A stretch of 64,000 nt of DNA from a virus, in the IMG/VR virus record IMGVR_UViG_3300012979_000038, positions 1 to 64,000 of that record. The stretch is one strand, 5' to 3'. Position numbers and translations under genes: made by a program. Below, in pieces: positions 5,317 to 56,594 of the stretch; position 1 is the first letter of the stretch; each line of letters opens with the position of its first letter. The notes under the pieces were generated by a model that saw only the letters and a list, made by a program, of their open reading frames with translations, was not told the origin of the DNA and searched no databases.

Positions 5317-5366
5317 TTTGAAATTTTCATAATTTTTACTATTTTGTTTATGTAATTATTAAAAAG
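5317..5366 (+). promoter_or_regulatory. class A promoter-like motif TTTGAAATTTTCATAATTTTTACTATTTTGTTTATGTAATTATTAAAAAG
   Basis: One of 9 copies of a ~46-nt conserved motif. TTTG then 19 nt then TAnnTT, as in Bacteroidetes -33/-7 promoters. It lies upstream of the tRNA-like element and the plus-strand block. Confidence 0.55.
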
Positions 5367-5410
5367 CTGCAGATTGATAATAATTACAGGGACTGATTCG
5401 GTAATACAAA

Positions 5411-5487
5411 GAGAGGGTAGTTCGAATCTACAAATAAAATTTGGGTTCTCCTTTGTTCAGTGGGTTCAACTCCCACCTTTCCCACCA
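5411..5487 (+). tRNA. tRNA-like element; cloverleaf not fully resolved by eye
   Basis: 3' end reads GTGGG-TTCAACT-CCCAC (5-bp T stem, consensus T loop), then CTTTCCC, A, CCA. The 5' strand GAGAGGG can pair with CTTTCCC at 6 of 7 positions. A second T-arm-like hairpin GTAG-TTCGAAT-CTAC sits at 5417..5431. D and anticodon arms are not convincing. Divergent intergenic location just downstream of a class A promoter. Confidence 0.3.
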
Positions 5488-5501
5488 AACTTTAAAATTA
5501 A

Positions 5502-5687
5502 ATGATTATGACAGTAAAAGACGCTAAAGAAAAATTGCAAAATCTTGTTGATTCATTAAATGTATATAATGATGATGCAGAGTTCGATATAAATATATAT
5601 GATAACTGTGGAGGTTATTATACCACTGATTTTGATGAGTGGTTGTTAGATAACAGAACTGATAAAGTTGTTTTAACTATTGAATAA
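5502..5687 (+). CDS. hypothetical small acidic protein
   Basis: 61-aa ORF, first gene of the plus-strand block. Confidence 0.35.
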   Translation: MIMTVKDAKEKLQNLVDSLNVYNDDAEFDINIYDNCGGYYTTDFDEWLLDNRTDKVVLTIE

Positions 5688-5964
5688 AAAATATATGAAG
5701 AAAATTTATCTATTATTGAGTCTTTTGACTATTCTAAGCTTTTCAAGCTGTACAGAACAAGCTCGTGTTCGTGAGTTTGGTGGTAAAATGGATATTGAAG
5801 TTCCAGCTGGTTACAAGGTAACATCAGCAACATGGAAAGAAACGGAGTTGTTTTATTTCTTAGAGCCAATGGAAGAAGGTTATGTTCCAAAGGAGAAGAA
5901 GTTCGTAGAAAGTTCCAGTTATGGATTCTGGGAAAGTGAAGTAACATTTAAAGAGAAACGTTAA
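5680..5964 (+). CDS. lipoprotein
   Basis: MKKIYLLLSLLTILSFSSCTEQ: signal peptide plus lipobox Cys. Confidence 0.55.
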   Translation: MNKKYMKKIYLLLSLLTILSFSSCTEQARVREFGGKMDIEVPAGYKVTSATWKETELFYFLEPMEEGYVPKEKKFVESSSYGFWESEVTFKEKR

Positions 5965-5984
5965 CATTAAAAAATAGAAAAAAT

Positions 5985-6812
5985 ATGAAAAAGAGTTATT
6001 TGGGTTTGATGATCACCCTAATGATCACAGCATTGTTCGCAAGTTGTACTACAGTATCTCCTGATTATGGACAAGAGGCAGTTAAAATTCATAAGCCTTG
6101 GTTCTTCGGTCAAGGTGGTGTGGATATGGAACCAGTTGAGACAGGTCTGCAATACACATGGTTTTCTACAGATTATGTAATTGTTACTATGGTTCCTGTT
6201 AAGTATGATGAACCTCTTGATGATGTTACATCAAACGATAACACATTGTTGGATTTTAAAACACAGATTCAAATCCAGGTAGAGGATAATAAATCACCTA
6301 TTCTTATCAAGAATTATGGTATTCATTTTTATGAGAACGTTATTCAGGAGCAATATCGAAATACTGTACGAAGTTATATCTCTAAGTATGGTCCATTTGA
6401 TTTGATGAGTAACCGTGAGGTTTTGGATTCAATTAATATTGCTGTCAAGAATGATATGATTGCATATATTGATGAGTTGTCAGAACGCAGTGGTGAGCTA
6501 CCTATTATTGTACAAAACGTATTGGTTGGACGAGCTATTCCAAATGATATGCAAAAGGAGGAAATGAATCGTACAGCCGCAGCTACCCAAGCTAAACGTA
6601 CCGAGGAATCTCGTAAGGAAATGCTTATTGCTAAGGAGGCAGCAGAACGTCAACGAGCAATTGCAGATAAAGCATACCAACGAGAGCTTGGTCTAACGAC
6701 TGACCAATTTATTCAACTTAAAGCATGGGAGATTATTGCCGAGAAACAAGGAGCTAATATTGATGTCCTTTTCGAAACCGGTGCTAACAAAATGTGGAAC
6801 GTACGTCGATAA
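5985..6812 (+). CDS. lipoprotein with SPFH/band-7-like C-terminal region
   Basis: MKKSYLGLMITLMITALFASCTT lipobox. C-terminal charged coiled coil AKEAAERQRAIADKAYQRELG...LKAWEIIAEKQGANIDVLFETGAN resembles the prohibitin/HflC C-terminus. Confidence 0.45.
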   Translation: MKKSYLGLMITLMITALFASCTTVSPDYGQEAVKIHKPWFFGQGGVDMEPVETGLQYTWFSTDYVIVTMVPVKYDEPLDDVTSNDNTLLDFKTQIQIQVEDNKSPILIKNYGIHFYENVIQEQYRNTVRSYISKYGPFDLMSNREVLDSINIAVKNDMIAYIDELSERSGELPIIVQNVLVGRAIPNDMQKEEMNRTAAATQAKRTEESRKEMLIAKEAAERQRAIADKAYQRELGLTTDQFIQLKAWEIIAEKQGANIDVLFETGANKMWNVRR

Positions 6813-6845
6813 ATCTTTAATTAATCTTTAAATATCATTAACAAT

Positions 6846-7631: not shown

Positions 7632-7671
7632 ATAAAATAATCAAATATTTTTTCATAAAACTTCATAGATT

Positions 7672-7717
7672 TTTGAAATTTATGAAGTTTTTTCTATATT
7701 GTATATGTAATTAAAAA
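7672..7717 (+). promoter_or_regulatory. class A promoter-like motif
   Basis: TTTGAAATTTATGAAGTTTTTTCTATATTGTATATGTAATTAAAAA, ending 11 nt before the ATG at 7728. Confidence 0.55.
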
Positions 7718-7727: not shown

Positions 7728-8084
7728 ATGAAACAGCTTTTAGTATTCGTTTACCGTAATGCAAATAATTGCGATTGTACAGCAAATGGAGTAACATCTA
7801 AGTACAAACAATTCACACTATTGTATGATTGCTCCTTTTATGAAGCTAAACAGTGGGTTGAGGAAAATGACCCGACAAAAATCGAAGAGTATTTGTATTC
7901 AAACCCACGAGTACTATGGGGTAAACCAGCACCTTATGCTGAACCTCTGCAAAAGAAACCTGGTGCAAATCAAATGTTCGCCGGTAATTTTGTTTACACA
8001 TCTGATTCACGTTTTCAAAACGCAACATACGGAATGGATGCTCCACTTAAAGTATTTGACCGTTTCGAACAATTTGAGTATTAA
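7728..8084 (+). CDS. hypothetical protein
   Basis: 118-aa ORF directly after a class A motif. Confidence 0.45.
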   Translation: MKQLLVFVYRNANNCDCTANGVTSKYKQFTLLYDCSFYEAKQWVEENDPTKIEEYLYSNPRVLWGKPAPYAEPLQKKPGANQMFAGNFVYTSDSRFQNATYGMDAPLKVFDRFEQFEY

Positions 8085-8587: not shown

Positions 8588-8646
8588 TTAGACTTAAACA
8601 AATCAAGTGGTGGTTCATTTTTATAAATAAACTAAAACAAAAAATT

Positions 8647-11563: not shown

Positions 11564-11616
11564 TTTGAAATTTTCATATTTTGTTCTATATTAGTATTGT
11601 AATATTAATTTAAAAA
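11564..11616 (+). promoter_or_regulatory. class A promoter-like motif
   Basis: TTTGAAATTTTCATATTTTGTTCTATATTAGTATTGTAATATTAATTTAAAAA, ending 11 nt before the ATG at 11627. Confidence 0.55.
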
Positions 11617-11626: not shown

Positions 11627-12280
11627 ATGACAAAACGTACGAAATTTTTAATTGTTTTTGGAGTTATTTTTGTTTCATTAACTATAATCTTTCCAACAAT
11701 TTATAACAGTGTAAAAACACGTAAAGCAACATCTGAATATCCTTACATAGTTTATCGCGGTAATATGGAGCTTAAGCTTCAAGAGAGTAAAGGTCTTTTG
11801 GTAGATGAGGTTAATGCATATATTGCACGTATTGCTCCAACAAGTAACCTTAACGGTCGTATTCTTGTTGAGTTATGTGATGAATATAATATTGATATTA
11901 AGTTTGTTCTTGCGCAAGGTCAAATCGAATCACATTATGGTACTCGTGGGTTGGCATCAAAAACTAATTCAGTTTTCAATGTTTTAGCTTATGATGGTCA
12001 TTCTTATAACCAAATTTGTAAAAACGGAAAGTATTCTCATCCAGATCATTCCATTCGTCCTTATCTTCAATTGTTAGCAGATGATTACCTCGTAGATGGT
12101 AAAACTGAATATGATTTAATGGATGAATTTGTAAACAAAGACGGTAATAGATATGCCTCTGCAAAAGATTACGAAAATAAACTTAAGAGTACATATAACT
12201 CAATTTCAGATACAACAAACACAAATATTGATTATTTGATGAAACAATATAATCATTACAAAATTATAACAGGTAGTTGA
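11627..12280 (+). CDS. membrane-anchored glucosaminidase-like peptidoglycan hydrolase (lysin candidate)
   Basis: N-terminal TM helix. AQGQIESHYGTRGLASKTNSVFNV resembles the mannosyl-glycoprotein endo-beta-N-acetylglucosaminidase core AQAxLESGWG...NNLFG. Confidence 0.5.
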   Translation: MTKRTKFLIVFGVIFVSLTIIFPTIYNSVKTRKATSEYPYIVYRGNMELKLQESKGLLVDEVNAYIARIAPTSNLNGRILVELCDEYNIDIKFVLAQGQIESHYGTRGLASKTNSVFNVLAYDGHSYNQICKNGKYSHPDHSIRPYLQLLADDYLVDGKTEYDLMDEFVNKDGNRYASAKDYENKLKSTYNSISDTTNTNIDYLMKQYNHYKIITGS

Positions 12281-12334
12281 ATTTAGGTTCAACTATTTGC
12301 TATATTTTTTTAATACAACTAATATTTTTAACAG

Positions 12335-13585
12335 ATGGAATTTAGTCAAGATATACAGAAGTTTTTAGAAGAGAATTATCCGAACGTCGATATTTATAAT
12401 ATGACTTTGGAAGAATTGGAAGCATTCAAAACAGAGATTATTCAAAAACGCCAAGAATATGCGTTGTTGGAGAATGCTCAAAAGGTTTTAGCTAACGCAG
12501 CTTATGGTTCTTCTGCAAGTAATGTTTTCTATTTCTTTAACGTTAATTTGGCGGCGGATATTACTGGTGAATGTCGAGAATTAACAAAATCAATGTGGCA
12601 TAACTTGGAGAATTTCTTTCATGAAACTATTTGGGAACGTAAAGATTTGTGGGAACAGTTTGATTTTGCATTGGATGAAAGTAAACATGATTGGTATCGT
12701 CAACAGGTAGTATCTTGTTATAGTGATACTGACTCTGTTTATACAACTTATGAAAATTTCTTTAACTGTTTTACGGCTGAAGCTTTAGCTAAATATCCAA
12801 CAACTGAAGATAAGATTCATTGGATTTTGAAGTTTAATAAAGAGTTCCTTGATAAACAGAATAATAGATGGTGTGAGGAAATGTATAATCCTCGTCATGG
12901 TCAAAATGTTCATGAGTTCGAGTTGGAAACTGTTTGTGAATCTCAAATTATTCTTAAGAAAAAGAAATATCTTAAAGGTCTTCGTTATAATAAAGGTAAG
13001 TTCCTTGATAAACCAAAGATGTCAGGTACAGGTATTGAGATTATCAAATCAACAACTCCAAAACTTTGTCGAGAGATTTTGACAGATCTTACACGTATTT
13101 TAATGTTTGAGTTCTCCGAAGAAAACCGTGACGAATTTATTATGATGTTCAATAATAAAATTCAAGAGTATCGTAAAATTTTCTATAATGCACCAATTGA
13201 AGATATTTCGCAATCTGTAGGTGTTGGAGCTTATAAGAAATATATTATTGAGGATGAGGAACAATTGATTCTTGGTAAACAATGTCCAGTATCTGTACAT
13301 GCGATTGGAAGATTTAATTATTTGGCACATAAAAATGGTGAAGATTCTAAACGAACATATTCTGGAAAGATTAAGTATTATAACATCATAACAGGCAAGG
13401 AAGGTAAAAATCCGGTTATTGGTTACTTTGGTTTCCCAGCAGGTGAATTACCAGATTGGGCTCCACCAATGCATAAACAAACACAGTGGAAGAAAAACGT
13501 AATTGACCCAATTAACCGTTTCTTGGAAGTTATGAAAATTCCATTGGCAACATCTTCATCAGTAATTCAGTTGGACTTATTTTAA
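12335..13585 (+). CDS. family B DNA polymerase, C-terminal fragment (fingers/palm/thumb) as a stand-alone ORF
   Basis: Motif B KVLANAAYG (Kx3NSxYG-like), motif C YSDTDSVY, KKKKY (KKRY). No motif A (DxxSLYPS) and no exonuclease motifs. The gene upstream is a lysin, so the N-terminal half is encoded elsewhere. Confidence 0.7.
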   Translation: MEFSQDIQKFLEENYPNVDIYNMTLEELEAFKTEIIQKRQEYALLENAQKVLANAAYGSSASNVFYFFNVNLAADITGECRELTKSMWHNLENFFHETIWERKDLWEQFDFALDESKHDWYRQQVVSCYSDTDSVYTTYENFFNCFTAEALAKYPTTEDKIHWILKFNKEFLDKQNNRWCEEMYNPRHGQNVHEFELETVCESQIILKKKKYLKGLRYNKGKFLDKPKMSGTGIEIIKSTTPKLCREILTDLTRILMFEFSEENRDEFIMMFNNKIQEYRKIFYNAPIEDISQSVGVGAYKKYIIEDEEQLILGKQCPVSVHAIGRFNYLAHKNGEDSKRTYSGKIKYYNIITGKEGKNPVIGYFGFPAGELPDWAPPMHKQTQWKKNVIDPINRFLEVMKIPLATSSSVIQLDLF

Positions 13586-14238: not shown

Positions 14239-14266
14239 ATGCCGAAAATTTTCGGCATTTTATTTT
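14239..14266 (+). terminator. rho-independent terminator
   Basis: ATGCCGAAAATTTTCGGCAT hairpin followed by TTTATTTT. Confidence 0.6.
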
Positions 14267-14306
14267 GAAAATTTTTAGATTTTTACTATATTAAATATGT
14301 AATTAA
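14264..14306 (+). promoter_or_regulatory. class A promoter-like motif
   Basis: TTTGAAAATTTTTAGATTTTTACTATATTAAATATGTAATTAA, ending 19 nt before the ATG at 14325. Confidence 0.5.
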
Positions 14307-14324
14307 CACAAAATTTCAAAATAT

Positions 14325-14987
14325 ATGATTATCGAAATTGTTCCTGATTTAAGAAAAAAGATTTACAACACCAAGATTGGCTATAGTACTTATAACCTTG
14401 TAAATTGGTATGGTGATTTTTCAACAATGACAGAAGATGATTTTGTTGAAGGTTTTAAACAGTTCGCTGCAGCTATCTTCATAACTTACGAAAATTTTGT
14501 TACACCTGAACTTATTGAACGTGTAGAAAAGTGTAAGGAACGTCAAATGAATAATTGGATTAAGTTTGCTGACCAAAAATACAAACGTGAAAGTTCAAAA
14601 CAAAAATTTCTTGAGCGAAAACGCCAGGAAGTAGAAAACGATACTTACTTTAATCGAATTGATACCTATTTCTTCTTTGATGTTGATCCAACTCAAGATA
14701 CACAGAACGGAATTCCACAATGGGCAACAATTACCAAGGAACGTGTTAATGATGAATTGTGGTTGAGACATCTTTATCGATGTTTGATTGAAGAACCTTG
14801 GTTCCGTAAATCAACTATCTTGTCATTGTTTTATGAAGCTTCAAACGACACTAAGAAATTTTCTTTCCGTCCGCAAGTAAAATTCATTATGGATGAGGAT
14901 TCAATGATTGAACGAGATAAACAAGCTAGAAAATTGAGTGAAGATATAGCTCATTTTTATAGTGATTGCAGATACTGCGAAGATTAA
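14325..14987 (+). CDS. hypothetical protein
   Basis: 220-aa ORF. Confidence 0.4.
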   Translation: MIIEIVPDLRKKIYNTKIGYSTYNLVNWYGDFSTMTEDDFVEGFKQFAAAIFITYENFVTPELIERVEKCKERQMNNWIKFADQKYKRESSKQKFLERKRQEVENDTYFNRIDTYFFFDVDPTQDTQNGIPQWATITKERVNDELWLRHLYRCLIEEPWFRKSTILSLFYEASNDTKKFSFRPQVKFIMDEDSMIERDKQARKLSEDIAHFYSDCRYCED

Positions 14988-16530: not shown

Positions 16531-16560
16531 ATGGACTCCTATTGGAGTCCATTTTTATTT
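16531..16560. terminator. bidirectional rho-independent terminator between convergent blocks
   Basis: ATGGACTCCTATTGGAGTCCAT followed by TTTTTATTT; A-rich on the other side. Confidence 0.6.
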
Positions 16561-16848
16561 TAGTTTAATAGTTTTTTGTTCAATATTAAATAATGTTTGA
16601 TCATGCGGAACAAGCTTATATGTTATTTGAGAGATGCTTTTATTCCTGAATATATAATCTATTGACCCATCAGATCTATCATCTCTGGTGTACTCGAATT
16701 CAATTCTAGATAAATCTATATTTCTATATATATCATTACCAGAATCATCTATTCCACCAAAGAAAAATAGATGTATAAATTCATTCTCATCTCTATATAT
16801 ATTTACAAATCCAGGAAACATATTTAAGCCTTTCTTACTCTCCACCAA
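16555..16848 (-). CDS. hypothetical protein
   Basis: 97-aa ORF. Confidence 0.35.
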   Translation of the reverse strand: MVESKKGLNMFPGFVNIYRDENEFIHLFFFGGIDDSGNDIYRNIDLSRIEFEYTRDDRSDGSIDYIFRNKSISQITYKLVPHDQTLFNIEQKTIKLK

Positions 16849-17726
16849 ATATTATCAATTGTTTCCGAAACATAACCTTCTGGAACAAAATTAGTATTTG
16901 GTCCTTCTGAAGCGTTATCAGCTGGGTTAAAATCTAAAAACTCACCACCTCTAACTTCAACTGTTACATTATCTCTTTCTGCATCAAGAATATTTACTGC
17001 GCAACGTTTGTTTAATGTTCCTGGAACAGATTCATCTCTTAATGGTGCAATATATTTTCCTCCATTAATAATTATAGAAGAACCAGCTTTTGATGTATAA
17101 ATTAAATCTCCACTTGGATTGCTTGCATAATATTCTCCACCATTCAAAATAACTGAACCACCATATGCCCAAACAGGTATACCTTGGTTAGATCTTTCTG
17201 AAATAACCTTACCATTACCATTAATAGTTAGAATACCATTTGTATGAACAACAAAAACATTAGAAGATTCTCCACTTGGTGTTGGTCTATTTTTTGCAGT
17301 AATGTTATGACCATTAAGATTCAAAATAACTTCTCCTTTAACATTAATATGAGATTCTTTAAGAATTATATCTGTATCAAGAGTTATTTCTCCTCCATTT
17401 TCCATAATACTCATAAATTCTGCTAAATAATCTTGTGTAGCACTGTTAGAATCTATGATAGTAAAAACTTGTTTTAATTCTGGTTTTGATTCAATTTCTT
17501 CTTCAGAAAGATTAACCGTTTCAACTAAAGAATTCATAGCGGACGCATATTCTTTAGCAGGTTTTGAAGCTGCATTATTAAGTCTTGCACCACGTTGCAT
17601 CATCCAAGAAAATTTATCATAAAGATTTTTTCTCTCTTCGTCTGATTTACAACTGCATAAAATTTTATTTACATTAATATTTAAACCAGTAGCTTTTCTA
17701 AAATTTTCTGAAAATAAACTATACAT
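16824..17726 (-). CDS. parallel beta-helix repeat protein (possible tail spike/depolymerase-like)
   Basis: Repeated G-x-I-x-N-G / NGGxY motifs: ILNLNGHNITAK, GILTINGNGKVIS, GSVILNGGEYY, SIIINGGKYIA. Confidence 0.45.
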   Translation of the reverse strand: MYSLFSENFRKATGLNINVNKILCSCKSDEERKNLYDKFSWMMQRGARLNNAASKPAKEYASAMNSLVETVNLSEEEIESKPELKQVFTIIDSNSATQDYLAEFMSIMENGGEITLDTDIILKESHINVKGEVILNLNGHNITAKNRPTPSGESSNVFVVHTNGILTINGNGKVISERSNQGIPVWAYGGSVILNGGEYYASNPSGDLIYTSKAGSSIIINGGKYIAPLRDESVPGTLNKRCAVNILDAERDNVTVEVRGGEFLDFNPADNASEGPNTNFVPEGYVSETIDNIWWRVRKA

Positions 17727-17852
17727 ATTTTATTTTTAAATTTATTTTTATCATTTTTAAGACCATTTAAATTACATAATATTAAATACTATTAGACTAA
17801 TATTTAAGTTCATCTCGAATGAACAGTGTAATTCTAGAAGTCATGTTAAAAC

Positions 17853-18176
17853 TTATTCTTCAACATCAATTTCAGATAAATCTTCGTTTTCAGTAACTTC
17901 GTTTTCGTCATTTTCATCTTGACCAGGAACCAATTCATCATCATTTACATCTGGTGTTGGTTCTGGATCTGGTGTTGGTTCAACTGGAGTATCTGATAAC
18001 TCAGCAGTAATATCTGCAACTAAATCTTCTCTATCTGAATTTTTAAAAGCTGTTCCGGCTGGTAAATGCCAAAGAATATGATTAAGTAAATCATTTCTGT
18101 TTTCTTCTGTTGCGTTAGCAATCATTGATTCAATATCAATTCTTGTATGTGCTAAATTATAAAATCTGTTATTCAT
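17853..18176 (-). CDS. acidic hypothetical protein
   Basis: 107 aa with PEPTPDPEPTPD and an acidic C-terminus. Confidence 0.4.
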   Translation of the reverse strand: MNNRFYNLAHTRIDIESMIANATEENRNDLLNHILWHLPAGTAFKNSDREDLVADITAELSDTPVEPTPDPEPTPDVNDDELVPGQDENDENEVTENEDLSEIDVEE

Positions 18177-18204
18177 AGTTTAAATTAATTAAATAATATA
18201 TTTT

Positions 18205-18552: not shown

Positions 18553-18567
18553 AAGTTTACGACATAC

Positions 18568-18585
18568 TTTTATTTATATAAAAAT
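18568..18585 (-). promoter_or_regulatory. class B motif (minus sense TATTTTTATATAAATAAA, contains TATAAATA)
   Basis: Exact 18-mer shared with 49511..49528 and 62522..62539. Confidence 0.5.
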
Positions 18586-18589
18586 AAAA

Positions 18590-18617: not shown

Positions 18618-18639
18618 TTCGTTTTTAACTCAAGGATAA

Positions 18640-34584: not shown

Positions 34585-34632
34585 TTTGAAATCATTTTTT
34601 TAGCTTACTATATTACTTTATTAGTTATAAAA
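34585..34632 (+). promoter_or_regulatory. class A promoter-like motif upstream of the sigma factor gene
   Basis: TTTGAAATCATTTTTTTAGCTTACTATATTACTTTATTAGTTATAAAA. Confidence 0.5.
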
Positions 34633-42764: not shown

Positions 42765-42780
42765 ATTCTTTTCTTTTTTA

Positions 42781-42825
42781 AAAAATTACATAAATAAAAT
42801 AGTAAAAAATATGAAAAATTCAAAT
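42781..42825 (-). promoter_or_regulatory. class A promoter-like motif (minus sense)
   Basis: Minus-sense TTTGAATTTTTCATATTTTTTACTATTTTATTTATGTAATTTTTT. Confidence 0.55.
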
Positions 42826-43537: not shown

Positions 43538-43547
43538 AATACTATTC

Positions 43548-44069
43548 TTATATTGTTTTTATTATTCTTACATCTCTTCTGGCCCCATAAATATCATGTG
43601 GGTTTCCATAATGACACATTCCGTCATAAAAGGTAGTTGTCCAACAAATTACGCTTCCACATGAAGCTATAATATTTTGTTTATACTTTAATAATTCATC
43701 ACGTGAAGGGATATGCCAACCATTATTAAATTTTAATGACAATGCATATTCTCTTGAGCACCAATGATAAGGTGGTTCAAGATTTAAAGGTAATACATCA
43801 GAAAGCCATGCACAAGGTTCACCAAATTCATTAACATCAATAACTGTACATTTTACATCATCAATTATTACCTTTTCACCAATTGGTGGTACAATATCAG
43901 TTTTATCAGTATTTTGTTCAACTGTGTTATTAGTATTTTGTTCAATCTGTTTTGTATTGTCTAAATTTTGACTTTGCAGTCTATTACTTAAGTACTCTAA
44001 AAATTCAGGCAAACAACATATAATTGCCAAAACAAACATACATGCTAATATAATTCCAAATAAACTCAT
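43548..44069 (-). CDS. membrane-anchored hypothetical protein
   Basis: N-terminal TM helix LFGIILACMFVLAIICCL. Confidence 0.4.
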   Translation of the reverse strand: MSLFGIILACMFVLAIICCLPEFLEYLSNRLQSQNLDNTKQIEQNTNNTVEQNTDKTDIVPPIGEKVIIDDVKCTVIDVNEFGEPCAWLSDVLPLNLEPPYHWCSREYALSLKFNNGWHIPSRDELLKYKQNIIASCGSVICWTTTFYDGMCHYGNPHDIYGARRDVRIIKTI

Positions 44070-44075
44070 AATATT

Positions 44076-44348
44076 TTATTTATTAGTTTTATTAAATTTT
44101 TCTTTAATCCATTGAATTGGTGTTTTCATTTTTACCCATTCATAATGGTCAATTGGACATAAAAACGCAAGCATATTCGAAATAGAATTATTTCCTATAT
44201 CTCTTCCAACAGGTACTTTCTTTTGCCACGTAAATAAACCATATAAAAAATCTTTAATCTCTGGAATCCAGAACAATATAAATGCTCCAATAAAAGCTAA
44301 ACCAAGCATTGATACAAAGATCAATCCCATTATTTCTAAAAAATTCAT
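44076..44348 (-). CDS. small membrane protein
   Basis: GLIFVSMLGLAFIGAFILFWI TM segment. Confidence 0.35.
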   Translation of the reverse strand: MNFLEIMGLIFVSMLGLAFIGAFILFWIPEIKDFLYGLFTWQKKVPVGRDIGNNSISNMLAFLCPIDHYEWVKMKTPIQWIKEKFNKTNK

Positions 44349-44360
44349 AATACTTATATT

Positions 44361-44672
44361 TTAATATTCAAATACACCATCTTCCCAGGTGAGTTTATCA
44401 CCGAAGTTTCTCTCAATAAATCCATCATAAACATATATCATATCATTTTCAATTATTGTGTCTGGATCATTAGGTAACCAATATCCCTCCGGCATTCTAA
44501 TAGGTTCTGCATCACTATAAAGCAAAACTTCTTGGCCATCTTTATTGATAGCAAGCCACATTTGTTTCCCTAAATATCTTTGTTTCTTTTTGTCTACTTT
44601 TAAAATATAGACACAATACCAAAGATATAATTTTACAAAAAATCTTCTAATTGGGTTCATAGTTTTTACCAA
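44361..44672 (-). CDS. hypothetical protein
   Basis: 103-aa ORF. Confidence 0.35.
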   Translation of the reverse strand: MVKTMNPIRRFFVKLYLWYCVYILKVDKKKQRYLGKQMWLAINKDGQEVLLYSDAEPIRMPEGYWLPNDPDTIIENDMIYVYDGFIERNFGDKLTWEDGVFEY

Positions 44673-44679
44673 GTTCTTA

Positions 44680-45051
44680 TTACTTCAATTCTTTTAACAA
44701 ATTTTCTAAGTATTTGATTAATTCAAATTTATCAGCAGGAACCTCTTCTATATACTTAACATGATACCATGTAGTAGAATCATAAGGATCAGCTGCATCT
44801 CTATACTCATACCACACTTTATATGTTTTATCGTCTTCAATTTTTTCTTCAACACCATTAGGATAACGCCAATAAGTTGGGTCGCTATATTTTTCAATAC
44901 GTGTTTTAATAAATTTTCCTTTACTAATATCGGTGCTTAAATAACGTAATTCATATAATGTTGGTTTGTCCATTAATGGAGTATTCTGAAGATTCAACTC
45001 ATTAACTAAACCTTTTATTTGTTCTATTGTATTTTCCATTTTATTCTTCAA
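44680..45051 (-). CDS. hypothetical protein
   Basis: 123-aa ORF. Confidence 0.4.
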   Translation of the reverse strand: MKNKMENTIEQIKGLVNELNLQNTPLMDKPTLYELRYLSTDISKGKFIKTRIEKYSDPTYWRYPNGVEEKIEDDKTYKVWYEYRDAADPYDSTTWYHVKYIEEVPADKFELIKYLENLLKELK

Positions 45052-45330
45052 TTTTTATTTGTTCACCAACTGATTTGTCTTTATAAATTTCTTTATAAAC
45101 ATCTGAATTAACCCATTGTTCGTATAATTTTCGATATTATTTTTGTTTATTTTCTTCAAATATTTGAATATCATTATGTAGTGTGTTTTTATCTATTGGC
45201 ATATTACTTTTTATTTTTTATGATTATATCCAGGATTTATTCCAGGATTTATTAAAGCATATTCAATATGTGTTTGTTTTAATGAATTATAATCAGGTGC
45301 ACTTGTTATTGATATTTCCATAATAGTTTT

Positions 45331-45495
45331 CTATAAATTTTTTAACTTATTTGCTAAGCTATAAACCTTATCTGATTTTTGTGAGAAAAGCTCAATCTCT
45401 TCTCCAGCTTCATAATTTTGTATAAGTGTTTCTAAAATTTCAATTAATAACTTATACTCAGTATTATTCAATTCTATATTAATCTTTGGTGTCAT
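45331..45495 (-). CDS. small hypothetical protein (54 aa)
   Basis: ORF MTPKINIELNNTEYKLLIEILETLIQNYEAGEEIELFSQKSDKVYSLANKLKNL in a 600-nt stretch with no ORF >=60 aa. Confidence 0.25.
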   Translation of the reverse strand: MTPKINIELNNTEYKLLIEILETLIQNYEAGEEIELFSQKSDKVYSLANKLKNL

Positions 45496-45647
45496 ATTAT
45501 ATTTAATTTATTTTGTAATTCTTCGATTTGTGACATTAACATATCAAAATCACCTTCATTAACTCTCAAAACTTTTTTCTTATATGTTAATGCATATATT
45601 ATTACATTATCTTCTTCTGTTAAATCCTTTTCTACATTTAATAAAAT

Positions 45648-45842
45648 TCATTTACCAATATTTAAATATGCATCAATTATTTGGTCATTTTCTAATGCTA
45701 TATAACATGCGGTATGATAAATAGAATTTAACTTTTCCAAAAATGGAAGTAACACTAATTTAGTATCAATGTCAATAGATAATTCATTTATCGTTTCATC
45801 TAAATTATCTAAATTGTCAATATCTATTATCTTCTTATTCAT
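45648..45842 (-). CDS. hypothetical protein; in-frame TGA separates it from a 52-codon downstream ORF
   Basis: 64-aa ORF. The frame stays open for 52 more codons after the TGA at 45650..45648. Confidence 0.3.
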   Translation of the reverse strand: MNKKIIDIDNLDNLDETINELSIDIDTKLVLLPFLEKLNSIYHTACYIALENDQIIDAYLNIGK

Positions 45843-46110
45843 TATTATTTATTTCGTCCCAAATTGATTTAAACGATTCAGGTATTTCTTTTAATAGATT
45901 CCATATCGCTTTGAAAAAATTAACTAAACCTTTTTTGAAAAACAAAACCAATAATGCAAATATAACATAAATCAATGTTAAAACAACATTAATTGGCCAA
46001 AAGATTAGTTTTATCCAATCTTCTGTAGATTCTGGTGTATCTGTACAAAATATAAGTACACAAATACAAAAATGAAAAAATATGTATAAACTTAATCCTA
46101 AACTTAACAT
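45835..46110 (-). CDS. small membrane protein (2 TM)
   Basis: Hydrophobic helices LSLYIFFHFCICVLIF and VVLTLIYVIFALLVLFF. Confidence 0.4.
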   Translation of the reverse strand: MLSLGLSLYIFFHFCICVLIFCTDTPESTEDWIKLIFWPINVVLTLIYVIFALLVLFFKKGLVNFFKAIWNLLKEIPESFKSIWDEINNNE

Positions 46111-46126
46111 AATTATTATTTATTTG

Positions 46127-46693
46127 TTAAACATTTCCATATGTTGCTAATGCAAGTCTATATGCGTAATCAAACATTGGTAAAGAGAATTTTTCAAATG
46201 GGTTTTTACATTCTGATATTTCACTGCAATGTTTTGCTGGGCACGCATCATAATTACAAAATCTTCCTGGTTGAAGATAAGATAATCTTTGAAGACAATC
46301 GTATAGATACTCATCAGGTTCCATAACTATCCAGTTTTCCCCGATTAATCTATTATCATTTTCGTTTAACCATTTTTCCCAGTTATTCATTTGCATATCA
46401 ATGAAATTCTGAGTATTACCACGTTGTTCATAACGTTTTTTGAAATCTTCTTTAGCCCAGATAGGTGGAACAATAGTTACACGTTCATCAAATGGAACAT
46501 TATCCACTATTAATTGGCGTATATCTTTATGACATGATACTAAAACTATAAAACCTTGATTACTGTAATGCATAGCACATTTCAAATATCTATCCCAATC
46601 TTTTTCGAAAGGAGTAGATTCTAAGTCAATAACACCAGGAAAAAATTTAGCTAAATGGCTTTTTCCTATGCCAGCATATCCACAAACTATCAT
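46127..46693 (-). CDS. P-loop NTPase with Cys-rich C-terminal region
   Basis: Walker A CGYAGIGKSHL; C-terminal CNYDACPAKHCSEISEC. Confidence 0.45.
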   Translation of the reverse strand: MIVCGYAGIGKSHLAKFFPGVIDLESTPFEKDWDRYLKCAMHYSNQGFIVLVSCHKDIRQLIVDNVPFDERVTIVPPIWAKEDFKKRYEQRGNTQNFIDMQMNNWEKWLNENDNRLIGENWIVMEPDEYLYDCLQRLSYLQPGRFCNYDACPAKHCSEISECKNPFEKFSLPMFDYAYRLALATYGNV

Positions 46694-46800: not shown

Positions 46801-46843
46801 GAAATTTCTTATCATATATAAATATAGTACAAAAGCTTAAAAA
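46801..46843 (-). promoter_or_regulatory. class A promoter-like motif (minus sense)
   Basis: Minus-sense TTTGAAATTTTTAAGCTTTTGTACTATATTTATATATGATAAG, immediately after the nrdD terminator. Confidence 0.5.
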
Positions 46844-46849
46844 TTTCAA

Positions 46850-46869
46850 ATAAAAAAGAGGAACTTTCG
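46850..46869 (-). terminator. rho-independent terminator of nrdD
   Basis: AGAGGAACGAAAGTTCCTCT hairpin followed by a T-run in minus sense. Confidence 0.6.
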
Positions 46870-46903
46870 TTCCTCTTTAAAATATATTATGTTACAATAA
46901 ATT

Positions 46904-49174: not shown

Positions 49175-49396
49175 TTAACAATCTGGTTCTGTATAAACTT
49201 TGTTATCTTCAATTTTGACAACCTTAAAAATTGTACCACCGGCATACCAGCCTTTGCCAACTTGTGGTTTCTTTTTCCAATTCTTTGCCCATTCTGTGAA
49301 GTTATCATCAAGCTTATTACTTACATAAACTTCCCATGGTTCTCCGTTTTCAGCTTTAACAGCTTCACTAATTATATAGTTTTGTAATGTTTTCAT
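49175..49396 (-). CDS. small protein with CTS-like N-terminus (MKTLQNYIISE)
   Basis: 73-aa ORF. Its leader matches the MK[ST]L.x[YH]I.E family. Confidence 0.4.
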   Translation of the reverse strand: MKTLQNYIISEAVKAENGEPWEVYVSNKLDDNFTEWAKNWKKKPQVGKGWYAGGTIFKVVKIEDNKVYTEPDC

Positions 49397-49457
49397 ATGT
49401 TTTATAAAAATGTATATTTAATTTAATATAGTAAAATGTTAATAAACAAAACAAAAA

Positions 49458-49510: not shown

Positions 49511-49528
49511 TTTATTTATATAAAAATA
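49511..49528 (-). promoter_or_regulatory. class B motif (exact)
   Basis: TTTATTTATATAAAAATA on the plus strand. Confidence 0.5.
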
Positions 49529-49536
49529 AACTAAAA

Positions 49537-51640: not shown

Positions 51641-52783
51641 TTAAAATTGTTCACAAAGTTTAAATGCTGATTCAATAGTATCTGATATTGAATAATTTCT
51701 GTATTCTGCTCGTTTTCCGCATAATAACATATTCGGATAATCTTTCTTTAATAACTCAAGATATCTTCCATAAAGACCGATTGAACGAGTATCTCTAATT
51801 AAATCAATTGGTTCTGCGCCAATCTCCCATTCTTTATAATATTTATAAATTGCTATTGTGTGTTCATCAAATTCTTTAGATTTTCCAATTTTCCAAGGTG
51901 TTAACCACTTAAACTCTGTTATTTTATACCATTTTACTTTTTTATCCAAATAATTAACAACTGGGCATCCTAATAAATTTGTTGTGTTTGCTGATTCATC
52001 TCTAATTACATAATCTGCAGCAGTCCATTCTAACTTACCAATGCAATAATTAAATAGTCTATCAATTTCACCAGTATAAATAACTCTATCTGCTAAAGAT
52101 GAATAAGATTTTGGTTTTTCTAAAAAATTTGTATCAAGTATTATTGATATATCATCTCCAATGATATTTTCTATAAGTTTAGTATATCCATTTTCTGGAA
52201 TTCCTTGATAGATCTCTTTGTAAAATCTGGCATCAGAAAAAAGTAATGTGTTATAAATTCGTTGATGAACATTAGCTGGTAAATTTTCGGGATCTTTGTT
52301 ATAAATCTTAGTATAATATTTTCTATAAATAGTTTCGTAAATTGTTTCACCGTATTTATAAATCAAATATTCCTTAAGATTATTAAACTCTTCATTTTCC
52401 ATAAATTTATCATCACGTAATCTTCTTTCAAATTGATATGGATAAGTTTCACCATAAATATCATAACACATTTGTAAATCATCAGAAAAAAGATAACGGT
52501 TTTTGTCGTCAACTAAATATTCATTATAAACTGTTGGTACGATATTGTCATATTTCTTAAGAAAATTCCAAACATCTTTATTATTTGTATGAATAATGTG
52601 CGTATCAAATAGATGAATTTGAATATCATATTTAAAATCATTCGCACAATTTCCTCCAACAAATGGACGTTCTTCTATTATAACAACAGAATATCCTTTA
52701 TCTTTAAGCAGACGAGCACAAGTGGCACCAGCAAAGCCGGCGCCAACTATCATAAAATCATATTTGTTTTTATTAGCGTGCAT
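51641..52783 (-). CDS. glf: UDP-galactopyranose mutase-like flavoenzyme
   Basis: N-terminal FAD Rossmann [42 protein letters not shown] and ~380-aa length are typical of Glf. Confidence 0.65.
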
Positions 52784-53048
52784 CAGTTAAACCTTCGTAT
52801 TTTCCAGATTCTAAGCAACAGTTCTTATATTTCTTTCCAGAACCACATGGACATGAATCATTTCTACGAATCTTAGGATATTCTCGAACTTGTTGTTTTG
52901 GACGTTGATAACGCATCATAAGTTGTTGCATTTTAGAAGGAGAAGCATCCAATGCTGATTGCATCGCTTCCATAGCATTTTGATTGTCTTCAAATTGGAT
53001 GTTTGTTACGCCATCCATAATCATTCCTGTTTCGATGTTAGTATTCAT
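52773..53048 (-). CDS. SEC-C motif protein
   Basis: C-terminal [13 protein letters not shown] metal-binding SEC-C motif. Confidence 0.55.
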
Positions 53049-53066: not shown

Positions 53067-53115
53067 TTTTATATCTATTTAAATATAGATTTTTACTTTA
53101 TAGATTTTCAATTAA
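53067..53115 (+). promoter_or_regulatory. degenerate class A/B-like promoter region upstream of first DUF285 gene
   Basis: TATTTTTATAT (first 11 nt of class B), then TTTTTACTTTATAGATTTTCAATTAAA resembling the 3' half of class A. Confidence 0.3.
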
Positions 53116-53160
53116 ACTTAAACTTTATTTTTATTTAATAGAAATTAAAATTTAACTAAT

Positions 53161-54114
53161 ATGAAGTCATTAAATCAATACATAAACGAGAAACTTGTTT
53201 TGAAGTCTAATAGCAAAATTAGAAAACATCAAGAATATAATTATCATCCTAAAACAAATGAGGAATTAAGAACGTTAGTTAATGAACTCATTGAAGAACG
53301 TGGTATTGAAGCTGATTTAAACGACATTGATACATCAAAAATTGATGATATGTCACATGTATTTGAAAACAAAAAATTTGATGGAGATATTTCAGACTGG
53401 GACGTTTCTAATGTAAGATATATGGGACATATGTTTTTATATAATTTTGATTTTACCGGAAAAAACACAGATTTTAGTAACTGGGATGTATCAAACGTTT
53501 ATCATGCCGATGGAATGTTTGCTGGATGTCAAAAGTTTGAAGGTAAAGGATTGGAAAACTGGAAATTGAAATCGTTAGGAGTAGCAAAAGAAATGTTCGC
53601 CAATTGTCATGAGTTAAATTTCGACATAACAAATTGGGATATTTCTAATATAGAATACTTTGAATCGATGTTTATAAATTGTAAAAAATTCAATCAAGAT
53701 TTATCTAACTGGAAATTCAATCATAATGTTAGAAATTTAACTGGTTTATTTATGGGGTGTGAAAGTTTCGAAGGAAAGGGATTGGAAAATTGGGATGTTA
53801 GTAAAATAACAAATATGAGAAGTATGTTTGCTGGCTGTGCAAAATTTAATGCCGATATAACTAAATGGGATGTTTATTCAGTTATTGGCATGTGTAATAT
53901 GTTTCATGGATGTAAAGAATTTAATCAGGATTTATCTAATTGGAATGTAAAAAATCTTATGGATATTACTGAAATGTTTAGGGATTCTGGTATGACATAT
54001 AATTTAGCAAAATGGGCACCTAAGCTTCACAATAAATGTAAAATAAAAAATGCATTAACTAATACACCGGTAACTAAATCAAAACGTCAACCTTTCTGGT
54101 ACTTTAGAAAATAA
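53161..54114 (+). CDS. DUF285-repeat protein, paralog 1, with CTS-like N-terminus
   Basis: Tandem ~22-aa repeats F.GDIS.WDVSNV..M..MF typical of DUF285 (Mycoplasma-type repeat). N-terminus MKSLNQYINEKLVLKSNSKIRK shared with 4 paralogs. Confidence 0.7.
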   Translation: MKSLNQYINEKLVLKSNSKIRKHQEYNYHPKTNEELRTLVNELIEERGIEADLNDIDTSKIDDMSHVFENKKFDGDISDWDVSNVRYMGHMFLYNFDFTGKNTDFSNWDVSNVYHADGMFAGCQKFEGKGLENWKLKSLGVAKEMFANCHELNFDITNWDISNIEYFESMFINCKKFNQDLSNWKFNHNVRNLTGLFMGCESFEGKGLENWDVSKITNMRSMFAGCAKFNADITKWDVYSVIGMCNMFHGCKEFNQDLSNWNVKNLMDITEMFRDSGMTYNLAKWAPKLHNKCKIKNALTNTPVTKSKRQPFWYFRK

Positions 54115-54520: not shown

Positions 54521-54524
54521 ATTC

Positions 54525-55076
54525 TTAGTTTATTTTGTTTATTTGGTCTACCATCAAATTAAGATATTGCTTCAAATTTTTTGTGAAATTTTCAATATCG
54601 TACATTTTATCATGGTCAAAAATTCGCAAATATGCATAAGTTGAAAATTTTTCAAAATGATAATCATCATGAATTTTAACAAGTTTTATGCAATCATTAG
54701 TAAGACTGCAACAATCAATCGTTAATGATTTTTCGAATGGATTAAACAATACAGTCAACTCTGTTGATGCAATTACGCCTTCATATTCACGGTGAAGTTT
54801 TATATTCGTATAATGATGATGATTTAATTTATCGGTTTTACACATTATATAGTTATTAAGATTGTTACCAAGCGTTATAAATGGTACTTTACCAGTAAGA
54901 CCATGTTCATCCATAAAATCGCAAGTTCCAAGAATATCTTTTGCTTGTTCCAAATGTTTCAAACAATTGTCTAACATCTGACACAAATTATCCTTGTATG
55001 CCTTTTGTGTTTGATTACGTTCTTCTTCTCGTTTTTTTGCAACTTCGAGAATTCCTAATTCATTGATAATTGTCAT
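54525..55076 (-). CDS. hypothetical protein
   Basis: 183-aa ORF. Confidence 0.4.
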   Translation of the reverse strand: MTIINELGILEVAKKREEERNQTQKAYKDNLCQMLDNCLKHLEQAKDILGTCDFMDEHGLTGKVPFITLGNNLNNYIMCKTDKLNHHHYTNIKLHREYEGVIASTELTVLFNPFEKSLTIDCCSLTNDCIKLVKIHDDYHFEKFSTYAYLRIFDHDKMYDIENFTKNLKQYLNLMVDQINKIN

Positions 55077-55081
55077 AATAT

Positions 55082-55303
55082 TTAAGCTTCGTTAATACGG
55101 ATAAGTGATTTTTCCAAAAATTCCAAAACTTTATCGTCACGATAGAAACAATCTACTCCATCGATAAACTGTACCTGACGAGCTACTCCATAGTGCTCCT
55201 CAATATAGTTAAAAACGAATTGTCCAAAACGAATATAATCTGGACGTGATTGTGAGGCAGTTACAACCTCTTGTGTCAATTCTTCAATTTTCATATTATT
55301 CAT
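55082..55303 (-). CDS. hypothetical protein
   Basis: 73-aa ORF. Confidence 0.35.
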   Translation of the reverse strand: MNNMKIEELTQEVVTASQSRPDYIRFGQFVFNYIEEHYGVARQVQFIDGVDCFYRDDKVLEFLEKSLIRINEA

Positions 55304-55311
55304 TTTTTGTT

Positions 55312-56538
55312 TTAAGCGATTTTTTGATAAGTTGTTTTAGGTGCTTTTGAAAGACGACCTTTTGTGTAAATAATCTCTTTACGATTTGATACGCAACCTA
55401 CATTTACTATGAATGAATATCCAATCTCATCGTTAACATAGAACTTCTTGATGGTGTCGCTCTTAACCATGAAAAGTAAACCAGATTTTGTATCGCGGAT
55501 GTAATATTCTGTATATTGAGCAGGTGCCCAATATGGAAAATAACCATCTTCGTCATAATTATCAACTAATTGAGTATACTCAATTTTACCAGTTACATTG
55601 TACTTAACACCGTATTCAATACCGTTTGCTTGTACAGCTGGAGTAAAAGTATCTACTTTCATTGAATCGTCGTACATCTTAAGTGCGAAGAATACCTTAG
55701 AAACTTCATAAAGGTTAATGTACTCAGCTTCGAATGCTTGTTTGATTTCTTTTACAAAATCTGTTTTTGCTTCCAAGTTCTTTACGAAATCAAATATGGT
55801 TTTGTTGTATTGCTCATTAACTGGGTATTCGGAGATATTGCGGAGCATTACTGCAATATGGTCAGTACTTCCAGGAACTTTCTCTGAACCATAAGGAGTT
55901 TGTTCGTAACATACCTTAACCCAATTTTGTTGTGTTTTACGATACTCTGCAACAACTGGAATGATTGCATTGATGTTAACTGCTTGTGAAAAGATGTTAA
56001 TTGATTTACCTCCACACCATACTCCAAGATTTTCCGAGTAACATCCGTCATATACTTTAATGATTTTATCTACTTTGTAAATAAAAGATGAAAGATACTT
56101 ACCATCATTCAACATTTTGTTAACACATGCAGTACCGACTTGCATCCATTGATTTGTATTTGGATTATAAACTACATGTGATTCTGTTCTTGCTATATGT
56201 GATTTTCCACAATAGTCACATTTTGTGTAATTGAGACCAAACTCTTTTGGCATATTTTTGAAGTACTCATCTGAAACTTTGGTGACGATTCCATCACGGT
56301 GATAAATACTTGCTACCAAAACCCACTCGTTTGCTACTACATAATCAATATTAACTTCAATAAGATCTAATGTATAACGATTACAATAAGACCCTTCATA
56401 TTCAACGATATATCTCGTGCAATCTACCGGTTTAGGTTGACTGAACGTAATAGTTGGTTTAACGGTGAAGTGTTTAACCATTGCATTAAGTTTGTTTTCA
56501 ACTTGCTTACGATTTGCTGGTAGAATGTAGAAGTTCAT
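55312..56538 (-). CDS. hypothetical protein with CxxC pair
   Basis: 408-aa ORF with CDYCGKSH; preceded by a class A motif. Confidence 0.45.
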   Translation of the reverse strand: MNFYILPANRKQVENKLNAMVKHFTVKPTITFSQPKPVDCTRYIVEYEGSYCNRYTLDLIEVNIDYVVANEWVLVASIYHRDGIVTKVSDEYFKNMPKEFGLNYTKCDYCGKSHIARTESHVVYNPNTNQWMQVGTACVNKMLNDGKYLSSFIYKVDKIIKVYDGCYSENLGVWCGGKSINIFSQAVNINAIIPVVAEYRKTQQNWVKVCYEQTPYGSEKVPGSTDHIAVMLRNISEYPVNEQYNKTIFDFVKNLEAKTDFVKEIKQAFEAEYINLYEVSKVFFALKMYDDSMKVDTFTPAVQANGIEYGVKYNVTGKIEYTQLVDNYDEDGYFPYWAPAQYTEYYIRDTKSGLLFMVKSDTIKKFYVNDEIGYSFIVNVGCVSNRKEIIYTKGRLSKAPKTTYQKIA

Positions 56539-56549
56539 ATTGAAATATT

Positions 56550-56594
56550 TTTTAATTACAAATACAATATAGTAAAAAATATGAAAATTTCAAA
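56550..56594 (-). promoter_or_regulatory. class A promoter-like motif (minus sense), near-identical to consensus
   Basis: Minus-sense TTTGAAATTTTCATATTTTTTACTATATTGTATTTGTAATTAAAAAA, 12 nt before the ATG at 56538. Confidence 0.55.

Follow-up and report, generated by a model that had tools for sequence, protein, structure and literature searches.

The DNA analysed here, called the window, is the 64,000-nucleotide stretch from position 1 to 64,000 of the IMG/VR virus record IMGVR_UViG_3300012979_000038, and the element under study is a motif of about 46 nt, class A, that recurs between its genes on both strands. We tentatively regard class A as a family of sigma-70-type promoters with which an uncultivated T4-like jumbo phage would transcribe its pre-replicative genes, with a slight preference for the host primary sigma factor as the protein that reads them. 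The promoter function proposed for the motif in an earlier, sequence-only reading of the window is strongly, though indirectly, supported by the anatomy, position and orientation of the copies, by the coupling of terminators with promoters and by conservation across the phage clade.

With the first T of TTTG counted as position 1, positions 2-7 of the motif are TTGAAA, positions 8-23 form a T-rich spacer that closes with an invariant C, and positions 24-29 are TATATT (TATTTT in two copies). TGTAA follows at positions 35-39, 5 nt past the -10 box, and an A-rich run then leads to the ATG. Each of the two boxes, TTGAAA and TATATT, agrees with the sigma-70 hexamer at five of six positions; they are separated by 16 bp in the six full-length copies (A1), or by 17-18 bp in the shorter variant, A2. 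RNA polymerase is expected to start at a purine (+1) preceded by a pyrimidine (-1), and T35 and G36 occupy the -1 and +1 positions, exactly 7 nt after the -10 hexamer; G36 is the predicted transcription start. The leaders predicted from it are 21-28 nt long, A-rich and without a Shine-Dalgarno sequence. Among the genes of the window, a 4-mer Shine-Dalgarno core was found in 2 of 76, against 6.7% of random 17-mers, while A stands at -3 in 68% and at -2 in 64% of them. This A-rich, Shine-Dalgarno-free translation initiation is a style described for Bacteroidota (PMC6847099).

The full 46 nt are common to six copies (5317, 7672, 11564 and 14264 on the plus strand, 42824 and 56594 on the minus strand), whose mean pairwise identity is 76%, compared with about 29% expected at the composition of the window. 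To avoid circularity, the two-block scoring matrix was trained on 129 sites taken entirely from other phage contigs. With this independent matrix the six copies scored 38.9-44.3 bits, where 60 Markov-1 random sequences gave a maximum of 19.5 and a mean maximum of 13.2 bits, and the exact class A consensus had zero expected matches in shuffles. The 34585, 46850 and 53112 copies have in common only the TTTGAAA-type and CTATATT boxes, separated by a spacer 1-2 nt longer, and carry no TGTAA. For all six A2 copies the support is their context, because the matrix scores are not above the random maximum or, at 12276, the copy is unscored.

All nine copies listed in the earlier reading were found again, its minus-strand numbers being low-coordinate ends correct to within 4 nt (full-length extents 42779-42824, 46805-46850, 56549-56594 and 53067-53112). 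Its count of eight strong copies was right for the six that share 46 nt, but not for 34585 and 46801/46850, which have the core boxes only and score 14.9 and 17.7 bits, and its list lacked three core-only copies at 61469(-), 12276(+) and 49455(-). Every copy in the window is intergenic, as had been claimed, although non-coding DNA makes up only about 5-7% of the window, and every copy is co-oriented with the downstream gene. The distance of 11-20 nt to the start codon, also claimed for all but 5317 and 34585, is 10-18 nt for the copies at 7672, 11564, 14264, 42824, 56594 and 53112, but does not apply to 46850, which lies 29 nt from a 22-codon open reading frame (ORF) and 112 nt from a 188-aa ORF. 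Significant hairpins with T runs behind them cover the -35 box at 7672, lie upstream of the 14264 and 46850 copies and fall within the spacer at 61469. No hairpins were found at 5317, 11564, 42824 and 56594, two of which stand at divergent junctions.

The window is part of the 80.9-kb metagenomic contig ENA ERZ27246411 k141_1621455 and has a G+C content of about 30%. It encodes a T4-type portal, a gp32-like single-stranded DNA-binding protein (SSB), NrdD, RNA ligase, a DNA-polymerase gene, thymidylate kinase and an ADP-ribosyltransferase, together with large Ig-domain structural proteins and a 401-aa protein of the sigma-70 family. The closest GenBank kin of the portal, at 31-41% identity, are those of uncultured 'huge phages', Sphingomonas phage PAU, Tenacibaculum phages PTm1/PTm5 and Prevotella Lak phages, and IMG/VR holds 48 loci with a related portal (40-72% identity) on contigs of up to 410 kb. 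These relatives match the 'group 2' T4-like jumbo phages, which have no RNA polymerase of their own and carry sigma factors of a minimal and an RpoD-like type (PMC7824862). Closer relatives were not obtained by megablast of 25 kb against GenBank phages or by an exact 45-mer search of IMG/VR, both with zero matches; the 408-aa protein retrieved zero related loci and the RNA ligase one. Since the other downstream genes had few relatives, promoter conservation could be followed orthologue by orthologue for the sigma gene only.

The motif itself was followed by scanning IMG/VR with the pattern TTTGAAW-N15-CTATWTT-N5-TGTAA, which matched at least 117 stretches. Many of the listed matches lie on large contigs that also carry the related portal or sigma gene, the related contigs being 100-435 kb long; at least 13 distinct copies were counted on the fetched stretches of the 376-kb contig 3300031994_002305, and at least 9 on those of a 158-kb contig. 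Of the unique sites among the matches listed, at least 141 in number, 87% are intergenic, in DNA that is about 18% non-coding. A same-strand ATG follows within 60 nt of TGTAA in 99 of the 123 listed sites that have a same-strand downstream gene, at a median of 20 nt. Positions that the pattern leaves free are also conserved among the listed sites, namely T8-T10, T21, A30-T31-A32 and the A-rich leader.

The same structure appeared when upstream regions were anchored on TTTGAA alone. C23 was then present in 45% of regions from portal-derived loci and in 29% of the other unselected sites, against a background of about 8%, and TATWTT began at position 24 in 32 cases, at 25 in 5 and at 26 in 9. Of the sites not picked by the pattern, 29 of 52 with a 16-bp spacer have TG exactly 5 nt past the -10 box, and TG almost never stands at other offsets; with a spacer of 17-18 bp the figure is only 4 of 32 (Fisher p = 7.5e-5). 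Because of this association the family is split into two sub-classes, A1 with a 16-bp spacer and the TGTAA start, and A2 with a 17-18 bp spacer and no TG start. Identity at free positions is 0.63 within a contig (the window) and 0.51 between contigs, an excess so small that the conservation over 46 nt is mostly due to clade-wide constraint and not to recent duplication. Class A would thus be a promoter because both hexamers match at five of six positions at a distance of 16-18 bp, TG falls at the offset of a start, the copies are intergenic and co-oriented, C23 and TATWTT recur in unselected sites and terminator hairpins abut several copies. The copies and the other features of the window are listed in Table 1.

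Table 1. Class A copies, associated hairpins, class B motifs and the phage sigma gene in the 64-kb window; bits are scores with the independent matrix
Feature	Position	Strand	Score	Structure and context
A1, full 46 nt	5317..5362	+	38.9 bits	divergent junction; predicted start G5352; then degenerate tRNA-like region and small ORFs
A1	7672..7717	+	42.9 bits	before 118-aa ORF 7728-8084 and RNA-ligase operon
Hairpin over -35 box of 7672 copy	7657-7691		-13.7 kcal/mol, z = -3.0	T run after
A1	11564..11609	+	40.4 bits	before glucosaminidase gene 11627-12280
A1	14264..14309	+	40.4 bits	before 220-aa ORFan 14325-14987
Terminator hairpin	14239-14258		z = -3.5	immediately ahead of 14264 copy
A1	42779..42824	-	40.0 bits	before 83-aa ORFan 42513-42764, within hyperplastic ORFan region
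A1	56549..56594	-	44.3 bits	one mismatch, nearest consensus; before 408-aa gene 55312-56538
A2	34585..34614	+	14.9 bits	TTGAAA-N17-TATATT, no TGTAA; putative phage sigma gene promoter; structured 80-nt leader next
A2, core only	46821..46850	-	17.7 bits	directly after NrdD terminator hairpin 46857-46876 (z = -2.3)
A2, core only	61439..61469	-	12.7 bits	18-bp spacer with hairpin; before gp32-like SSB gene 60258-61355
A2, weak	53082..53112	-	13.8 bits	ATTGAAA-N17-CTATATT; before SEC-C-motif gene 52773-53048
A2, candidate	12276..12306	+		GTTGAAT-N17-CTATATT, hairpin over -35 box; before DNA-polymerase gene 12335-13585
A2, candidate	49425..49455	-	7.0 bits	TTTGTTT-N17-CTATATT; after terminator hairpin; before 49175-49396 and NrdD
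Phage sigma-70-family gene, 401 aa	34696..35901	+		candidate alternative reader of class A
Class B motif	5278-5292	-		intergenic
Class B motif	8613-8629	+		intergenic
Class B motif	18570-18595	-		intergenic
Class B motif	49512-49531	-		intergenic
Class B motif	56604-56625	+		intergenic; back to back with 56594 A1 copy
Class B motif	62523-62537	-		intergenic
Class B, weaker	27867-27884	-		
Class B, weaker	34523-34540	-		
Class B, weaker	35905-35930	+		
Class B, weaker	53123-53134	+		

The sequence-only reading had assigned TTTG-N19-TAnnTT to the Bacteroidetes -33/-7 architecture rather than to the E. coli -35/-10 type. The string is literally present, and with TTTG at positions 1-4 and TA at 24-25 the N19 distance of a Bacteroidota -33 element is kept, the same bases serving as T plus the TTG of the -35 box. 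The assignment itself is not supported, as T-6 and G-5 of TAnnTTTG are absent. In F. johnsoniae promoters T-12, A-11, T-8, T-7, T-6 and G-5 are nearly invariant (PMC6847099), whereas across 132 clade sites A occupies -6 in 71% and T occupies -5 in 70%. TAHHTTTG is not enriched outside genes in the window (5 of 63 occurrences are non-coding), none of these being correctly placed before a gene, and the two-box Bacteroidota pattern was found in 2 of 301 and 0 of 535 clade upstream regions. No other sigma-70-like promoter class was seen in the window or in the 836 clade upstream regions.

Judged by its bases, then, class A is not a canonical Bacteroidota promoter and would be nearer to TTGACA-N17-TATAAT. 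It resembles the promoters of the Bacteroidota sigma-ABfr (PMC6847099) in the TTTG placed 19 nt before TA, in T-12, A-11, T-8 and T-7 and in the A-rich leaders without Shine-Dalgarno sequences, but differs in having A or G and T at -6/-5. The likeness to canonical sigma-70/sigma-A promoters lies in the two hexamers, the spacer of 16-18 bp and the purine start 7 nt after the -10 box. Class A differs from these in preferring a spacer of 16 and not 17 bp, in an extended -10 element of the form T-n-C instead of TGn, in T instead of A at -8 and in a strongly conserved TGTAA start region.

The genes downstream bear on the time of expression. A1 copies precede the tRNA-like region with its small ORFs, the 118-aa ORFan with the RNA-ligase operon, the glucosaminidase gene and the ORFans of 220, 83 and 408 aa, while A2 copies stand in front of the genes for sigma, gp32 and DNA polymerase, of the NrdD operon and of the region that follows NrdD; thymidylate (dTMP) kinase and a RecJ/DHH protein are also among the genes downstream of class A. 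A different motif, class B (TTATTTTTATATAAATAA, which holds the T4 late-promoter core TATAAATA), stands before the structural operon 16555-34499, the portal and a five-member paralogue family, and class A and class B are placed back to back at three divergent junctions. Class B is probably the late promoter class, and class A is without the TATAAATA -10 element of T4 late promoters. Since DNA-metabolism genes and ORFans lie downstream of class A while the structural genes carry class B, class A would be early or middle, and the earlier suggestion to that effect fits the downstream genes (ORFans, RNA ligase, DNA polymerase, gp32, Nrd genes and dTMP kinase). A match to the class A regular expression at 41290-41320(-) was rejected as a copy, because a terminator hairpin joined to a class B motif explains it better. 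The paralogue family consists of five genes with phrog_17273 / phrog_3649 repeats, at 53161-54114(+) and 56640-60201(+), which form a tandem array plus one dispersed copy, all behind class B.

The phage sigma protein is conserved in the clade at 52-100% identity, including the contigs richest in A1 (e.g., those of 376 and 118 kb), and no homologue was found in PTm1 or other cultured phages beyond generic region-2 similarity. HMMER aligned it to solved SigA/RpoD structures in regions 2.1-2.2 and 4 only. An insertion of about 65 aa (180-247), also conserved, follows FDKFDTDR and separates region 2.2 from a segment resembling regions 2.3/2.4, FASVAFQWIRANIIIEL. This segment has V, Q, A and I where E. 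coli sigma-70 has Y430, W433, Q437 and T440, and the recognition helix of region 4.2 differs from the E. coli protein as well. For a sigma with both regions 2 and 4, the insertion and the missing residues make an unusual architecture.

The sigma gene lies behind a class-A-like promoter with a long spacer (A2) in the window and in four of four relatives (L168-L171; 53-83% identity). The copy at 34585 had been singled out as an exception followed by a leader hairpin; a structured 80-nt leader does follow, but the copy is not a strong one. The leader of the sigma mRNA, 34620-34695(+), contains nested outer stems, UUAGUU/AACUAA and AACUCGU/AUGAGUU, which are kept in L170 (9925-10000; 83% identity), where the inner hairpin has the same place and another sequence. 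This leader may serve in autoregulation or in the control of translation. At 34581-34588(+) the -35 box of the sigma gene promoter is overlapped by TATTTTTG, which has the canonical form of a Bacteroidota -7 box. No other TAHHTTTG-type box in the window has a gene start on its own strand within about 110 nt, but even this one lies at too great a distance from the start for correct -7 placement. It also occurs in L170, just before TTTGAAA, and is absent from L168 and L169; the box could be an entry point for the host sigma.

A scan of bacterial genomes with the class A pattern gave, among the matches listed, mostly single matches in AT-rich genomes of many phyla. Metagenome-assembled genomes (MAGs) labelled 'Romboutsia' (L173, L180, L188, L192, L233, L242) and 'Erysipelotrichales HAN091' (L204, L215, L225, L237, L245, L250) have several class A copies each on contigs of 26-31% GC; these look like mis-binned jumbo-phage contigs and give no host evidence. 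An identical A1-like promoter, TTTGAAATTTTTTATTTTTGAACTATATTATATGTGTAA, is present in five Paludibacteraceae/Bacteroidales MAGs (L181:6011-6049, L211, L213, L239, L246), with a 225-aa ORFan 48 nt downstream; the surroundings form a mosaic island of ORFans that is 90-95% identical between MAGs. No Pfam matches and no protein similarity to the phage were found in the island. As a sign of the host, the Paludibacteraceae match is at most suggestive.

In the reading that we tentatively prefer, bacterial core polymerase with a sigma-70-family sigma would bind TTGAAA as the -35 box, the 16-bp T-rich spacer and the extended -10 element T-n-C-TATATT, and would initiate at T(-1)G(+1) of TGTAA, 7 nt past the -10 box, to give the short A-rich leaders described above. 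Behind a gene of the same orientation, a terminator hairpin is often found immediately ahead of the -35 box or across it and would turn the unit into an insulated cassette, as in the early-promoter stem-loop elements (PeSLs) of T4-type phages. A1 would mostly serve ORFans and accessory genes, and A2 the sigma, gp32, DNA-polymerase and Nrd genes. The reader would be the host primary sigma, as at T4 early promoters, and the 46 nt would be kept by selection of strong early promoters across the footprint of RNA polymerase.

Several observations favour the host sigma. Class A has canonical boxes, whereas the residues that read a canonical -10 element are lost from the phage sigma; the sigma gene is itself placed behind a class-A-like promoter in the window and in L168-L171, and no other host-type promoter class was found in the window or the clade upstream regions. 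Moreover, an A1-like promoter is kept in the Paludibacteraceae island, which is unrelated to the phage, and T4 early promoters and PeSLs give a direct analogy. In addition, the jumbo phages of this group are without an RNA polymerase of their own (PMC7824862), and the 2855-aa ORF of the window matches none.

Other observations weigh against this reading. The start site and the timing, like the identity of the sigma, are what we infer from the motif and its genes, and four A2 copies score 12.7-17.7 bits, not above the random maximum of 19.5, with the candidate at 49455 lower still (7.0). No known host consensus includes the invariant C at -13, the fixed 16-bp spacer or TGTAA, all of which co-occur with the phage sigma throughout the clade. 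The Shine-Dalgarno-free genes with A-rich -3/-2 positions point to a Bacteroidota host, and positions 30/31 (-6/-5) of the window copies are G/A and T/G/A where Bacteroidota promoters need T and G. As a positive control we used 150 kb of Tenacibaculum phage PTm1, a cultured jumbo phage with a known Bacteroidota host. This DNA has 23 coding-strand TTTG-N18-21-TAHHTTTG sites, mostly with the full box TATATTTG and about 20-30 nt before an ATG, and the class A core was not found in it.

The main alternative, which we consider a real possibility though one that falls somewhat short of probable, is that A1 is the cognate promoter of the phage's derived RpoD-like sigma and serves middle or delayed-early transcription. 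The host polymerase would first transcribe the sigma gene from its A2 promoter or from the overlapping TATTTTTG, the phage sigma would then redirect the core enzyme to A1, and a separate late system would act on the TATAAATA-like class B. In phages with a sigma of their own, such as SPO1 (gp28) and phiEco32 (gp36), the phage sigma drives replication genes, which we count in favour of this alternative. These systems, to which SPO1 gp33/34 also belong, resemble the present one in the absence of an own polymerase, in a sigma with regions 2 and 4 and in a highly uniform, phage-specific promoter class before replication genes. Class A, however, is similar to the -35/-10 consensus, from which the promoters known to be read by phage sigmas clearly depart. 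The same comparison takes in the RpoD-like sigmas of group 2 jumbo phages (PMC7824862). Neither the class A motif nor promoters read by such jumbo-phage sigmas were found described in the literature searched.

Further support for the phage sigma comes from the distribution of the two elements, as its gene is a conserved core gene of exactly those contigs that have many A1 copies (376 and 118 kb), and PTm1, in which no homologue of it was found, uses TTTG/TATATTTG promoters instead of class A. In the clade, by contrast, there are essentially no canonical Bacteroidota promoters, and class A is without the TTTG of the Bacteroidota -7 box despite the Bacteroidota-like translation signals (PMC6847099). 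Conservation of C-13, the 16-bp spacer and TGTAA extends across the clade, and the statistically distinct spacer and start separate A1 from A2, the sigma gene always being behind A2. However, the -35 box and the -10 box (T-12, A-11, T-7) look canonical, yet the phage sigma has lost the canonical reading residues; its own promoter has these two boxes as well; a search for a separate promoter class of host type, from which the programme could begin, found none; and, should the host lie outside the Bacteroidota, the mismatch with their promoters would not matter. If the alternative is taken to its end, the phage might, a proposal of the same middling plausibility, convert a Bacteroidota polymerase from TTTG/TAnnTTTG to the private grammar TTGAAA-16 bp-C-TATATT-TGTAA by means of its clade-specific sigma. 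The sigma gene would then be bootstrapped from the long-spacer variant and controlled through the conserved structured leader.

Whichever sigma is involved, class A is of a known kind, that of phage promoter families, especially T4-type early promoters and PeSLs, and the T4-type early promoter/PeSL cassette would be the closest known analogue of class A. In PeSLs, a repeated strong sigma-70-like early promoter is combined with a stem-loop upstream of, over or between its boxes; they concentrate around nrdD and in hyperplastic regions rich in ORFans, and they bring about the shuffling of modules (PMC2839356, PMC4122927). Class A shares with them the many near-identical sigma-70-like copies conserved beyond the hexamers, upstream DNA rich in AT, the stem-loop terminators that some copies have before, over or between their boxes, and ORFan-rich intergenic sites, also beside nrdD, in a phage that is itself T4-like (T4 portal, gp32, gp23-group jumbo phages). 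It differs in its A-rich leaders without Shine-Dalgarno sequences, in hairpins that are AT-rich instead of GGGG/CCCC and accompany only about half of the copies, and in the C-TATATT -10 element with its conserved TGTAA start; in addition, the phage encodes an RpoD-like sigma.

This likeness raises a further explanation, in which the 46-nt repeat is mainly a recombination or mobility element, a PeSL-like linker, or the operator of a regulator (the TGAAATTTTCA dyad), with promoter activity secondary; we consider it improbable. A1 copies do lie in and around a hyperplastic region, 42513-46693(-), that has 12 small ORFs and A1/A2 copies between a conserved 270-aa gene and NrdD. In L170 (17085-19658; 83% sigma identity) this region is replaced by eight unrelated ORFs, one with a Macro domain, while a near-identical A1 copy, TTTGAAATTTCATATTTTTTGTCTATATTGTATTTGTA, is kept. 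PeSLs are documented to shuffle cassettes in T4-type phages (PMC2839356, PMC4122927), and copies within the contig are slightly more alike at unselected positions than copies between contigs. However, this excess is small, and conservation is concentrated on -35, -10 and +1 instead of being even. The strict orientation and the fixed 20-30 nt to start codons are properties of promoters, and the synteny breakpoints against L170 fall away from the motif, so that in this comparison PeSL-type recombination at the motif was not seen.

That the class A matches arose by chance in an AT-rich genome has a negligible likelihood: a loose core with one mismatch per box does give many matches in coding regions, and the listed bacterial matches are scattered one to a genome, but with the independent matrix the six full copies exceed every random sequence by about 20 bits, the exact consensus is unexpected in shuffles and the bias of position and orientation is extreme. 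Chance is refuted for the six A1 copies and is a concern for the lowest-scoring A2 candidates, 12276 and 49455, only.

Some neighbouring features deserve mention. The 5317 copy had been described as followed by a tRNA-like element; no tRNA is called there at ARAGORN defaults, but a degenerate fold appears at relaxed settings. This element, 5411-5491(+), combines a good T-arm, GTGGGTTCAACTCCCAC, with an acceptor-like stem of 7 bp and an encoded CCA, and a second T-arm-like hairpin, GTAGTTCGAATCTAC, lies just upstream. The Rfam match of the element covers the T-arm only, and Rfam at gathering thresholds, like ARAGORN at defaults, found no RNA elements. An ADP-ribosyltransferase (PF03496) is encoded at 37758-38339(+), directly after the portal gene, a synteny shared by L170, and may be a T4 Alt-like injected modifier of RNA polymerase. 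The 2855-aa ORF, 19237-27804(-), belongs to the structural operon and has phrog_14959 as its sole match, with no sequence match in Pfam or PDB. A crAss-like virion RNA polymerase as reader of the motif was dropped, as this ORF matches no RNA polymerase, Pfam or PDB entry.

The analysis provides a promoter model, consisting of the -35 box, a 16-bp spacer, the C-extended -10 box and TGTAA, for a widespread clade of uncultivated rumen and gut jumbo phages with contigs of up to 435 kb. With this model, sequence alone suffices to annotate operon boundaries and temporal classes. Should the host sigma be the reader of A1, the family would be the clade's equivalent of T4 early promoters. If the phage sigma reads it, the RpoD-like sigmas of T4-like jumbo phages would have their first assigned promoter, and the pair would constitute an orthogonal sigma/promoter system for Bacteroidota.

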